The position numbers and the translations under genes were made by a program. The notes under the pieces were generated by a model, which was given only the letters and a program-made list of their open reading frames with translations, was not told where the DNA came from and searched no databases. Below are positions 38,903-52,881 of a stretch of 64,000 bases of DNA, piece by piece; the first letter of the stretch is position 1, and each line of letters opens with the position of its first letter. This DNA comes from Escherichia phage P1, in the sequence record MH445380.1; one strand, written 5' to 3'.

Positions 38903-38919
38903 TTGCTCTAATTGATTGC
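38903..38919. promoter_or_regulatory. C1 operator-like motif overlapping a TATAAT -10 element upstream of ref
   Basis: attgctctaattgattg followed by ctataat at 38919..38925. Confidence 0.55.
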
Positions 38920-39016
38920 TATAATTGAGCCGCAGTTTTTGTCAACTACGAAGACGTTGCCATTACTTCACTCCTTGACATCATTGGCGGCCATTAGGCC
39001 GCCTTTTTTTTGCCAT

Positions 39017-39577
39017 ATGAAAACAATCGAACAAAAACTTGAACAGCGCCGCGAGTGGCAGAAGGCAGCCAGAGAACGAGCGATCGCTCGGCAACGGGAA
39101 AAGTTGGCTGACCCCGCCTGGCGAGAATCGCAATATCAGAAAATGCGGGATTCTATCGACCGCCGTATCGCTAAACAGAAAGAGCGCCCACCAGCCAGCA
39201 AAACGCGGAAAAGTGCGGTAAAAATAAAATCTCGTGGCTTGAAGGGACGAACACCGACGGCGGAGGAACGGCGTATAGCCAATGCTCTTGGCGCTCTCCC
39301 CTGCATTGCCTGCTATATGCATGGAGTAATATCTGAAGAGGTGTCTCTGCACCATATCTCCGGTCGTACCGCGCCGGGTTGTCACAAAAAGCAGTTGCCA
39401 CTTTGTAGATGGCACCACCAGCATGCAGCACCGGCTGAAGTAAGAGAAAAATACCCCTGGCTGGTCCCTGTTCATGCCGATGGTGTGGTTGGAGGCAAGA
39501 AAGAATTCACCTTGCTGAACAAGTCAGAGATGGAGTTACTGGCTGACGCCTATGAGATGGCAAACATCATGCACTAA
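39017..39577 (+). CDS. ref: Ref (recombination enhancement function) HNH-type endonuclease, 186 aa
   Basis: ATG at 39017 (MKTIEQKLEQRREWQ...); cysteine/histidine cluster CIACYMHG...CHKKQLPLCRWHHQH; position after c8 as in P1. Confidence 0.8.
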   Translation: MKTIEQKLEQRREWQKAARERAIARQREKLADPAWRESQYQKMRDSIDRRIAKQKERPPASKTRKSAVKIKSRGLKGRTPTAEERRIANALGALPCIACYMHGVISEEVSLHHISGRTAPGCHKKQLPLCRWHHQHAAPAEVREKYPWLVPVHADGVVGGKKEFTLLNKSEMELLADAYEMANIMH

Positions 39578-39766
39578 TAAATATATTATTTTTAATGATA
39601 AATGATTGACAACTGACAAGTGACTTCAGTCAGAATCATCACACGCCCGGTACGGATGGATCCCTTTTCAAATATTCCATGGACGGCACAGTCTGAGTAC
39701 CGGGCGCTACCTTCAGTTGTATTGCTAAGCCGCCGCTGGTGGCTTTTCTTTTTTGTAGGGGGCGCT

Positions 39767-40408
39767 ATGGATAAGAAAATATGCGTTGTTTCGATGAGCG
39801 TCGGCAAACCGGCGTCAATGACTGCTGCATGGATCAATAACGAGCTGATAATGGCTGAGCGGACCAGCTACCCTGAACGCCGCCGCGATATGGAACTCCA
39901 GCTGCTGCGCGAATTGCGAGAAAAAGAGGAAAAGGGTTTTATCGTGCTGGTGGAAGAGGAAAACAGCTTTATTACTGGTCGAGTTGGCCAGCGTGTAAGG
40001 TTGCGCGATCCCTTCATGAACGGCAGGCCGGTACTGATTGAAGCAATGCAGATTTACAAGGAGCTGGAACGCCAGAAAGCGATCAAGTTACCGCGCAAGG
40101 AATCCGGCAAATACATCCTCCACCAAAGCATCTTCGATTCCGAACACGATAAAAAAGGCGATGAATTTTTCAACATCAACTGGAGCGAAATAACGACAGA
40201 GCATGTTCTGACGTTACTATGTTGCTTTGCGACGGAATACAACAACGTTGCCAGCGCCGAGTACATCAGGGCAATGGCTTCTGAAGTGGATAGTCGTGAT
40301 GACTCATCGCTGATAGCGTCATATATAAACATCATCAAGAAAACTCAAATTATGGGATGCGCTAGAGTTCCTCAAGGAATACTCACCGGAAAGAATAATA
40401 TTCTATAA
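39767..40408 (+). CDS. mat: Hypothetical protein in P1 mat position (213 aa from ATG 39767); AT-rich 3-prime end
   Basis: ATG preceded by GGGGG Shine-Dalgarno; track ORF 39620..40408 starts at an upstream alternative codon; name from synteny only. Confidence 0.45.
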   Translation: MDKKICVVSMSVGKPASMTAAWINNELIMAERTSYPERRRDMELQLLRELREKEEKGFIVLVEEENSFITGRVGQRVRLRDPFMNGRPVLIEAMQIYKELERQKAIKLPRKESGKYILHQSIFDSEHDKKGDEFFNINWSEITTEHVLTLLCCFATEYNNVASAEYIRAMASEVDSRDDSSLIASYINIIKKTQIMGCARVPQGILTGKNNIL

Positions 40409-40453
40409 CCTACGAAGGTTATTTGTTACTTTCTGCGTAAACCCACAACTAAC

Positions 40454-40473
40454 CTTCCTAAGTTAAGGAAGGT
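40454..40473. terminator. Bidirectional hairpin between convergent genes
   Basis: ccttcc-taagttaa-ggaagg stem-loop followed by tattt. Confidence 0.5.
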
Positions 40474-40505
40474 ATTTATCATGAAGTGTAGACATAAGCG
40501 TATTA

Positions 40506-50870: not shown

Positions 50871-51882
50871 TGTTTTGAAAACGGTCACTGACCGCTTTTG
50901 TCTCTATAGCAATGCTCGAAAAGGTCGCCAGAACGGGCGACAGTATGTATTAAGCGCGGTAAAGACCATGCTTGAAAGCAAGGAAACTCAGGAAGGTTTA
51001 CGCCTTGGTGAGCTTTTCGGCTATTACGGTCACGGTCGCCGACAGCTGACTGGCAAACTGGAAGTACCAGAAACCAGCGTGATCATGGTGGAAGGTCGCC
51101 CGGTCGTAATCGACAATGTTCCGGCGTGTCGCACAGTGGCTATATCTGTTGACGACAACGGCATCGTTACCCATACACAGGAAATTCTTAACACAGAGCC
51201 GGGTAAAATTGTCGCCGCGATGATCGAAAGCCGAGCTGGTGGCTGGAGCTGGGCCACTGGCGGGCGCGAGTCCGGGAAAATCGCTGTAACCACCAGCTTC
51301 CATGGTGTGGATTATGTGACAACGCCGAACTATATCAGTCTGGATCATCCTGCCAGCGCCGGAATGTTTGAAAGCGCGGATTCTAAATCTCTACTGGCAG
51401 AGTCCCTGGCGGCGCATGGGTACTCCGACGAGTCAGTGCAGGCAGTTATATCCCATTACGGCAAAATGGCTGAACTGGAAATGATGGTGGAGGCGACAGA
51501 GCGTACGGCAGAACTGGAAACCGCACTACTCGAAAGCCAGGGCCGCCACCTCGAAGCAATGGCCAAGATCGCAGATGCTGAAGCGCGAATCGCTTTGCTG
51601 GAGGAAACAGCGGGTATCCGCGACGATGTGCTGGCAGCAATGCAAGACGAACTGGATAACCTCCCGATCTTCGTCTCCGCCGCCCAAAAAGACGCATTCC
51701 GCCTCAAAGAACCTGGTGATGCAAAAATCGTTGCCACACTTTTCGAATCTCTGATCAAAGTTGGCGCACGCAACTTGCCTGTCACCAGGAAAATTAAGGA
51801 GGTTCCGCAAGCGGCTAACGTCCAGGCACCGCGTGAGACAAGCATCATCACGTTTAATAATTCAATCAATCCGTTCAAATAA
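50863..51882 (+). CDS. pro: Head processing protease Pro (339 aa from ATG 50863)
   Basis: ATGA overlap with prt stop; track ORF starts 10 codons upstream. Confidence 0.7.
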
Positions 51883-51896
51883 CCACCAAAAATAAC

Positions 51897-51914
51897 CCCG
51901 GCAGCTGCCGGGGT
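51897..51914. terminator. Rho-independent terminator-like hairpin after pro
   Basis: Perfect palindrome ccccggcagctgccgggg followed by ttctcgtt. Confidence 0.65.
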
Positions 51915-51929
51915 TCTCGTTAACTATTA

Positions 51930-52187
51930 TCACCTTCGCCTGCGTGCCATATATTTGCGCACCGCGCGGCCTGGACAATCTGAAGCTGTTTCTTTCTGCT
52001 GCATCAATCTCGCAGCCATGCTCAAAAATGTCAGGCACAGCCGAAGCCCGGCATACAATAGCGGTTCCAGTGGCCACGTCTCATTGAGCACATATACCGC
52101 CATGAAAATCGAGTCAAAAACTATCGCCGCCAGCGATAACTTCATTGTCGAAAGTCGGCGGAGCTGCCGGAGTTTATTCATTGACAA
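51930..52187 (-). CDS. Small membrane protein downstream of lyz (85 aa), possible lysis accessory protein
   Basis: One hydrophobic segment LSLAAIVFDSIFMAVYVL and basic C-terminus; 14-nt overlap with lyz end. Confidence 0.3.
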   Translation of the reverse strand: MSMNKLRQLRRLSTMKLSLAAIVFDSIFMAVYVLNETWPLEPLLYAGLRLCLTFLSMAARLMQQKETASDCPGRAVRKYMARRRR

Positions 52188-52731
52188 GCCCCGTCAGGCA
52201 AAGCTGGCGTTCTTTTTCACGGCGAATCTTTAAACCTCGCAGGGGCACGCCGTTACTGTTCACGAAATCAGGGAGATGGTTACACATATTCACCCATTCC
52301 CCTTTCTGCGCCCACTTGTGGATGGACGTTTCTACTCGCATGCCTCGCGCTTTGCTGTAGTAGGTCCGTAAGCTATTGCATCCCATATTGAATGCCGCGC
52401 TTGTCATTGCACTGAAGGCATTATCGGGCATGTCTTTGCCCCGGAAGTGCTGATTAATACAGCGTTCAGCGATCAGGATATTCTTTTCCCAATCAGCGGC
52501 GATTTGCTGGTCGGTTTTTCGCACACCCGGCGTTACCCCGTGTGTATTACCGATCCCGTCAGTCCATACCCCCGCCGGGCACATGTATGGATCACGTCGG
52601 CAACCTTCAGCGTTACCAATCAGCTCAAGCCCCGCCTGGTTGGTTCGCACATTGCCATTACCCATCACGATGGTAATCATCACCGCGATAGCGCAAATTG
52701 CACCGCCTCCTGCGGCTGTTTTTCCCTTCAT
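52174..52731 (-). CDS. lyz: SAR-type endolysin Lyz (185 aa)
   Basis: N-terminal signal-anchor-release segment MKGKTAAGGGAICAIAVMITIV; T4-lysozyme-like catalytic region; track ORF extended 14 codons. Confidence 0.85.
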   Translation of the reverse strand: MKGKTAAGGGAICAIAVMITIVMGNGNVRTNQAGLELIGNAEGCRRDPYMCPAGVWTDGIGNTHGVTPGVRKTDQQIAADWEKNILIAERCINQHFRGKDMPDNAFSAMTSAAFNMGCNSLRTYYSKARGMRVETSIHKWAQKGEWVNMCNHLPDFVNSNGVPLRGLKIRREKERQLCLTGLVNE

Positions 52732-52864
52732 AAAGACCTCATAAGCGAATTTTTTACGCTCCAGGACAAACACTCATTCACAGCCAATACCGACTGACTC
52801 GATCCCTTTAGAAGGCACAGGATAATGCAAATCACTTGTTAGCCACGTTTCAAAGATATACATT

Positions 52865-52881
52865 ATTGCTCTAATTAATTT
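52865..52881. promoter_or_regulatory. C1 operator-like motif in lyz-ssb divergent intergenic region
   Basis: attgctctaattaattt. Confidence 0.5.

Follow-up and report, generated by a model that had tools for sequence, protein, structure and literature searches.

In lambda-type systems, the prophage repressor CI occludes early promoters from OR and OL, and early promoters are likewise occluded by the prophage repressor in phage P1. In lambda, the operators form palindromes, are grouped at two sites and are cooperatively bound by dimers. Unlike these, the sites of the P1 repressor C1 are asymmetric and dispersed, one at each early operon, amounting to 22 operators per genome with the consensus ATTGCTCTAATAAATTT (PMC8546580). 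Some P1 operators, e.g., Oc1ab (Op99a/b), are bivalent, i.e., composed of two overlapping and oppositely oriented 17-mers, whereas Oref and Ossb are annotated as monovalent, the repressor and the 17-bp half-site consensus being the same in both types.

For P1, binding and repression by C1 at Oref and Ossb are known from GenBank annotation and secondary citations. Following heat induction of c1.100, ref is induced in a range similar to that of ssb, dmt, kilA and ban, which are counted among the C1-controlled genes (RT-qPCR), and ref activity is noticeably higher when C1 is defective or absent (PMC4713147). The host protein H-NS also binds the 5' region of P1 ref, where the motif CGATAAA is found, as seen by EMSA (PMC4713147), and the title of an earlier article cited therein refers to “attenuator-antiterminator control” (Windle et al., 1988). 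As for the endolysin gene lyz, it is described as late and driven by a previously identified promoter, LPlyz, which depends on Lpa (PMC8201110).

Oref, Ossb and the repressor gene in the window

The window, i.e., the whole stretch of 64,000 nucleotides analysed here (MH445380.1, Escherichia phage P1), is a P1/P7-like phage-plasmid with 100% identity to GenBank MH422554 (“Punavirus P1”) and 97-98% identity to reference P1 at both operator loci. The gene c1 is intact and its product is identical to P1 C1.100 at 282 of 283 residues, the sole difference being G193 in the window vs. C193 in the temperature-sensitive (ts) allele; P7 C1.9, identical to the window C1 at 280 of 283 residues, has G193 as well. 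A Pfam search with the window C1 matched no family and its identity therefore rests on the pairwise comparison with C1 of P1 and P7. The window does not include lxc, the gene of the corepressor.

Judging from their sequence, the two motifs considered here, one upstream of ref and the other between lyz and ssb, are almost certainly the P1 operators Oref (Op2a) and Ossb (Op21), namely asymmetric 17-bp sites for the C1 encoded in the window (Table 1). Alignment to the P1 operator annotation, as the original prediction had proposed, gives identity at every base of both sites, with flanks 98-99% identical. In AF234172, both intervals are annotated as protein_bind, phage repressor C1, the first being named Oref; in AF125376.2, the second is annotated as operator 21 (Op21), bound by C1, the major repressor of P1, and Op21 also exists as a separate GenBank deposit (M25412).

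Table 1. Coordinates of the operators, promoters, genes and other elements considered in the window.
Feature	Position	Strand	Basis
c1, immunity repressor (283 aa)	2235-3086	minus	pairwise comparison with P1 and P7 C1
CGATAAA, H-NS binding motif	38881-38887	+	sequence; motif and EMSA in PMC4713147
P2ref (-35 CTACCA 38897-38902, 17-nt spacer, -10 TATAAT 38920-38925)	38897-38925	+	P1 annotation via alignment
Oref (formerly Op1/Op2a), monovalent C1 operator ATTGCTCTAATTGATTG	38902-38918	+	17/17 to AF234172 1962-1978
P1ref, predicted promoter (TTGCCA, 16 nt, CATCAT)	38957-38984	+	P1 annotation and consensus scan
GC-rich hairpin GGCGGCC-ATTA-GGCCGCC then T8, terminator/attenuator in ref leader	38986-39011	+	terminator scan
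ref, RecA-dependent nuclease (186 aa)	39017-39577	+	Pfam PF16786, E = 9.6e-51; P1 annotation
Omat (formerly Op2/Op2b), C1 operator CATGCACTAATAAATAT	39568-39585	+	AF234172 2628-2645; 19.1 bits
lyz, endolysin (185 aa)	52174-52731	minus	Pfam PF00959, E = 2e-22; P1 annotation
LPlyz, late Lpa-dependent promoter (-10 52819-52824, -22 box 52829-52837)	52819-52837	minus	P1 annotation
P2ssb (formerly Pr21; -35 TTGTTA 52836-52841, 17-nt spacer, -10 TACATT 52859-52864)	52836-52864	+	P1 annotation via alignment
Ossb (formerly Op21), monovalent C1 operator ATTGCTCTAATTAATTT	52865-52881	+	17/17 to AF234172 21015-21031 and AF125376.2 5683-5699
P1ssb, predicted promoter	52870-52898	+	P1 annotation
ssb, phage single-stranded-DNA-binding protein (162 aa, GTG start)	52901-53389	+	Pfam PF00436, E = 7e-40; P1 annotation

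Oref overlaps and Ossb abuts a sigma-70 promoter of an early gene. Oref fills the spacer between the -35 and -10 of P2ref, overlapping the annotated -35 by a single base. The original prediction had set this motif at 38903-38919 and overlapping TATAAT: the motif is present but one base further to the left, and it ends one base before TATAAT, without strict overlap. The start codon of ref lies 98 bp downstream of Oref, with a second promoter (P1ref) and a terminator-like hairpin in between, and a further operator, Omat, lies ahead of mat and overlaps the stop codon of ref. This arrangement, i.e., the same 17 bp in the P2ref spacer followed by P1ref, the leader hairpin and ref, is that of P1 Oref, the flanks differing at two of 161 compared bases (38889, T in the window vs. 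C in P1; 38900, C vs. T, within the annotated -35). Compared with P1, the upstream context is altered by a 33.1-kb multidrug-resistance transposon region, which ends at 38745, 156 bp upstream of Oref.

Ossb, whose coordinates had been exactly predicted, sits within the 169-bp gap that separates lyz from the divergent ssb gene, beginning one base past the -10 of P2ssb; it covers the start-site region of this promoter and includes the -35 of the predicted P1ssb. The place of the operator is the same in P1. Control by C1 in this intergenic region had been considered as less expected but is that of a classical operator, annotated in both P1 records. Two bases differ from P1 nearby, namely 52844 (C in the window vs. 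T in P1) within the P2ssb spacer, and 52898 (A vs. T), which weakens two predicted -10 hexamers, that of P1ssb (TAAGAA vs. TAAGAT in P1) and that of Plyz (TTTCTT vs. TATCTT), a predicted sigma-70 promoter directed toward lyz. Respective to the promoters, a simple scan for the sigma-70 consensus with a threshold of 9/12 recovered neither P2ref nor P2ssb, the hexamers of which are weak (P2ref matches 9/12 positions, of which only 3/6 in its -35 hexamer, and P2ssb 8/12), and the promoter positions were therefore taken from the P1 annotation.

From the sequence of c1 and of both loci, we infer that the same C1 control applies in the present element, presumably by steric occlusion. In the prophage state, C1 would sit on Oref inside the P2ref spacer, and on Ossb past the P2ssb -10, over the start-site region and the P1ssb -35. 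Bound C1 would exclude RNA polymerase at both promoters and ref and ssb would thus stay off; in P1, C1 is helped to bind by the corepressor Lxc/Bof. Upon inactivation of C1 by Coi, by Ant or, in ts mutants, by a temperature shift, ref and ssb would be expressed together with the other early lytic genes.

Scores and conservation of the operator core

In the window, matches to ATTGCTCTAATAAATTT with at most three mismatches number 8 vs. 0.17 expected, i.e., about 50-fold above chance, and none of 100 shuffles reached 8. Ossb presents one mismatch and Oref three, all in positions 12-17, and the 5' core ATTGCTCTAAT is complete (11/11) in both. With a position weight matrix (PWM) trained on 13 other consensus-matching sites of P1 and applied to all 17-mers of the window on both strands, Ossb scored 24.7 bits (rank 3) and Oref 17.1 bits (rank 8). 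None of the 20 top PWM sites, down to 8.9 bits, is an opposite-strand partner overlapping Oref or Ossb; a bivalent architecture was rejected on the ground that no opposite-strand 17-mer of at least 8.9 bits overlaps either operator.

The 5' core of the operator is under selective conservation compared with its variable flanks. Among relatives from IMG/VR (80 ssb loci and 50 distinct haplotypes at Oref), positions 1-11 of Oref are invariant in all 50 haplotypes and positions 1-12 show a mean of 0.08 variant haplotypes per column vs. 5.2 in the 30 nt upstream; the -10 of P2ref is also invariant in relatives. For Ossb, the corresponding mean is 0.5 at positions 1-12 vs. 1.7-1.8 in the flanks, and 74 of the 80 loci have a matching operator at position -36 relative to the ssb start. 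Two Cronobacter JK004-like contigs, with an SSB 69% identical, are among these 74; their intergenic region has otherwise diverged but ATTGCTCTAAT is intact. The copies found in the plasmid database, mostly 95-100% identical at both loci, offer little divergence for footprinting.

Alternative readings at ref and lyz

That one or both motifs could be AT-rich promoter sequence resembling an operator by chance, and left unbound by C1 in this element, is highly improbable. Such a reading can draw on the mismatches of Oref, all confined to its 3' half, on block-shuffled windows, which contain 0.13 sites of at least 17.1 bits each so that the score of Oref is reached in about one window out of eight, and on comparable unannotated matches inside pacB (1422) and inside darB (49015-49031); at 18.5 bits, the latter outscores Oref and, as such, a sequence score is by itself no proof of function. 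Against it, both sites are identical to annotated P1 operators at orthologous positions, their core is selectively conserved and ref is derepressed on C1 inactivation (PMC4713147), which also bears out the proposed control of ref by C1. Less remote, though still unlikely, is the view that ref is silenced in the lysogen mainly by host H-NS together with the leader terminator, C1 at Oref playing a minor part. The CGATAAA motif is indeed present in the 5' region of ref bound by H-NS, the strong hairpin followed by T8 just before the ref ATG dominates the RNA fold of the leader (z = -2.97), and the predicted P1ref lies downstream of Oref, uncovered by the operator. However, the higher ref activity observed with defective or absent C1, along with the induction of ref when C1 is inactivated (PMC4713147), indicates that the H-NS and terminator layers add to the control by C1 and do not replace it.

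With C1 retained as the repressor acting at Oref and Ossb, the question arises whether Ossb also serves lyz, i.e., whether C1 bound there directly controls this divergent gene by blocking transcripts from Plyz or by disturbing LPlyz, which appears improbable. Plyz (AF234172 21044-21070, minus strand) is the only promoter that would read through Ossb toward lyz and, since it is placed beyond Ossb in the direction of ssb, any transcript from it would need to get past bound C1; as for LPlyz, Ossb lies 28 bp upstream of its -22 box. Yet Plyz is only a prediction and its -10 in the window is without the key A at position 2, whereas LPlyz is the previously identified, Lpa-dependent promoter. LPlyz is identical in the window and P1, and the AAATCACTTGTTAG island is kept even in the JK004-like relatives. 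Relative to LPlyz, Ossb is upstream of the core elements, near positions -53 to -69, and direct occlusion of this promoter was rejected in view of the 27-bp gap to the core. The original prediction of a direct tie between the repressor and the endolysin promoter region is not supported. Since lyz is under the Lpa-dependent LPlyz and Ossb is outside its core, C1 would rather govern lyz indirectly through lpa, just upstream of which an operator match is found in P1 (OP279344 83467-83483).

Bearing on the C1 regulon and on the element

As C1 operators of ref and ssb, Oref and Ossb were already known and are real but ordinary. There is a slim chance, hardly better than that of a direct action on lyz, that the C1 regulon of this lineage is slightly larger than annotated, owing to a site upstream of c8 and/or to C1 at Ossb damping leftward lyz transcription. 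The operator-like ATTGCTCTAATTATTTG is located 17 bp upstream of c8 (5289-5305), scores 20.3 bits vs. 17.1 for Oref and stands in place of the TATAAT of the predicted Pc8 of P1. If true, ATTGCTCTAATTATTTG could place the lysogeny-establishment gene c8 under C1, here and in some other P1-like plasmids, but the overall picture of P1 immunity would be unchanged.

While of little significance beyond correct annotation, marking Oref, Ossb, Omat and the Oc1 cluster carries the P1 immunity regulon over to a resistance-carrying P1-like phage-plasmid. With its repressor and early-gene operators intact, this element probably remains a repressible prophage despite the 33-kb multidrug-resistance insertion 156 bp upstream of Oref.

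Identity and strength of the two operators

The 17-bp motifs upstream of ref (RecA-dependent nuclease) and between the divergent lyz (endolysin) and ssb (single-stranded-DNA-binding protein) genes correspond to two annotated binding sites of the P1 immunity repressor C1, namely Oref and Ossb. In the alignment to the P1 operator annotation called for by the original prediction, each motif was 17/17 identical to its counterpart in AF234172, with two flank differences from P1 at Oref and four at Ossb; an independent deposit, AF125376.2, describes the same 17 bases of the latter as "operator 21 (Op21)," i.e., a binding site for C1, the major P1 repressor. 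The lyz-ssb motif was found exactly where it had been placed. The motif upstream of ref is likewise present, but it had been positioned at 38903-38919, overlapping TATAAT; since a single C separates its actual span from this hexamer, it abuts the -10 element without overlap.

Features of the window and of reference P1
Feature	Record	Position	Strand	Remark
c1	window	2235-3086	-	cognate repressor
Oc1a	window	3181		annotated P1 operator, mapped as expected
Oc1c	window	3353		annotated P1 operator, mapped as expected
Oc1d	window	3645		annotated P1 operator, mapped as expected
Oc1e	window	3728		annotated P1 operator, mapped as expected
Oref	window	38902-38918		ATTGCTCTAATTGATTG; ends one base (C) before TATAAT (38920-38925)
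P1ref	window	38957-38984		predicted; downstream of Oref
GC-rich hairpin, T8 tail	window	38986-39011		just upstream of ref ATG
Omat	window	39568		annotated P1 operator, mapped as expected
lyz	window	52174-52731	-	identity confirmed by Pfam
LPlyz	window	52819-52837	-	previously identified late promoter of P1 lyz; identical to P1
P2ssb -10	window	52859-52864		TACATT; Ossb starts at next base
Ossb	window	52865-52881		ATTGCTCTAATTAATTT; within 169-bp lyz-ssb gap
ssb	window	52901 (GTG start)		identity confirmed by Pfam
P2ref	AF234172	-35 1957-1962; -10 1980-1985		Oref between them
Oref	AF234172	1962-1978		protein_bind "phage repressor C1"; monovalent; former Op1 and Op2a; controls ref transcription
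Ossb	AF234172	21015-21031		protein_bind "phage repressor C1"; monovalent; former Op21

The published operator consensus, ATTGCTCTAATAAATTT (PMC8546580), has 8 matches with at most three mismatches in the window against 0.17 expected, a count reached by 0/100 shuffles. With a weight matrix (PWM) built on 13 consensus-matching sites from P1 record OP279344, Oref and Ossb being left out, Ossb scored 24.7 bits (rank 3 among all 17-mers in the window) and Oref 17.1 bits (rank 8), block-shuffled windows giving 0.13 sites of at least 17.1 bits and a maximum of 18.5 bits. Judged against these shuffles, Ossb greatly exceeds chance, and the weaker Oref match derives its significance mainly from context and orthology. 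Both are monovalent, as the PWM scan, considered down to 8.9 bits, found an opposite-strand partner for neither. At the level of sequence, both sites qualify in every respect as members of the P1 C1-operator family. The repressor encoded in the window is identical to P1 C1.100 at 282/283 residues, the sole difference being G193 here versus C193 in the thermosensitive allele; G193 is common to P7 C1.9, and the window C1 thus carries the non-mutant residue.

Genomic surroundings and further operator-like sites

By BLAST against phage records, both loci match "Punavirus P1" MH422554, which came from human infant feces, at 100% identity; for reference P1 and other P1-like phages the value is 96-98%. 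The left end (1-5613), i.e., the pacA-pacB-c1-coi-lox-cre-c8 region, is closest to P7 (97.5%). Homology to reference P1 stops at about 40279, within the 3' part of mat; a "mobile element protein" is annotated in MH422554 for 40280-41600, with a 346-aa ORF at 40506-41546 (-), and the P1 res/mod restriction genes, which follow mat in P1, appear absent. A 33.1-kb multidrug-resistance region (5614-38745) interrupts the 3' end of c8 and ends 156 bp before Oref. It contains a class 1 integron, cmlA1, mph(A)/mrx, an aac(6') gene, a TnAs3-like transposase and three copies of an 820-bp repeat, probably IS26 as judged from RCS47 features. Its boundaries are formed by a pair of Tn3-family tnpA genes in inverted orientation, diverged to 73-83% identity and with 38-bp terminal repeats. 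On either side of the region lies one copy of a 5-bp direct duplication, GTTAA (5609-5613 and 38746-38750), and the right-hand tnpA (35747-38713, +) reads toward ref. In P1, positions 1957-1982, near a known insertion junction (PMC6906374), coincide with P2ref/Oref.

Two unannotated sites score above Oref. At 5289-5305 (+), 17 bp before the c8 start codon (ATG at 5322), ATTGCTCTAATTATTTG (20.3 bits) could be a C1 operator at c8; P1 and P7 carry ATTGCTATAATTATTTG at this position, the sole annotation of its TATAAT being as the -10 of predicted Pc8, and the operator-like CTCTAAT form occurs in the window as well as in plasmids CP122941 and CP043252 (the latter from E. albertii). The other, ATTGCCCTAATGTATTT at 49015-49031 (+; 18.5 bits), falls within darB, in the first ~70 bp of its coding region and on the strand opposite to it, and is identical in P1 (AF234172 17166-17182), without operator annotation there.

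Conservation among relatives

An operator match lies exactly at -36 from the ssb start codon in 74 of 80 IMG/VR ssb loci. In two of these (L090 and L091), SSB identity is down to 69%, and the phage record closest to them is Cronobacter phage JK004 (78% nucleotide identity); two islands survive in their heavily diverged intergenic region, namely ATTGCTCTAAT and AAATCACTTGTTAG, the latter containing the -35 of P2ssb as well as the -22 box of LPlyz. Across 50 distinct ref-upstream haplotypes, Oref positions 1-11 and TATAAT are invariant and positions 13-14 variable, against a mean of 5.2 variant haplotypes per column in the 30 nt upstream of Oref. The operator and -10 block is still kept in more divergent plasmids without ref. 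In plasmids CP122941 and CP043252, the Oref/P2ref block and leader hairpin are kept, ref is missing and what follows in the annotation is an ant/KilAC antirepressor gene in convergent orientation, so that the conserved promoter-operator appears to face no obvious gene. In IMGVR_UViG_2645727673_000011, Oref itself, ~100 nt upstream of ref, is interrupted by a Tn21-type inverted repeat (...TTCTGAGACGACCCC), so that only TAATTGGTTG of the operator remains beside TATAAT and the operator 5' core and P2ref -35 are cut off from ref.

Promoter architecture and C1 control

It had also been suggested that the site in the lyz-ssb gap would tie the endolysin promoter region to C1. Ossb lies 27 bp beyond the LPlyz -22 box, outside the core promoter, and only the predicted sigma-70 promoter Plyz, within the first ssb codons, would read through the operator; its -10 is TTTCTT here versus TATCTT because of an A at 52898. 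Lysozyme being described as Lpa-dependent (PMC8201110) and an operator match lying just upstream of lpa in P1, control of lyz by C1 would be indirect, and direct control is thus unsupported and improbable. The A at 52898 (T in P1), located downstream of the ssb ribosome-binding site and ahead of the GTG start, also weakens the predicted P1ssb -10 (TAAGAT to TAAGAA), and 52844, in the P2ssb spacer, is C versus T in P1; most relatives have the P1 bases.

The observation is real and its interpretation essentially right. The whole finding is already known from the P1 annotation and literature, including control at Op21, which had been considered less expected. In AF234172, Ossb directly follows the P2ssb (former Pr21) -10 and shares bases with the -35 of predicted P1ssb; beginning right after the P2ssb -10, it covers the start-site region. 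A 1988 paper by Windle et al., cited in PMC4713147, names attenuator-antiterminator control in its title, and CGATAAA, an H-NS motif reported in PMC4713147, is present at 38881-38887. One ref promoter is described as occluded by a C1 binding site, ref activity rises with defective C1, and heat inactivation of C1.100 in P1 induces ref within the range of C1-controlled ssb, dmt, kilA and ban (PMC4713147). At ref, C1 would occupy the P2ref spacer, and RNA polymerase would be sterically excluded by the bound repressor.
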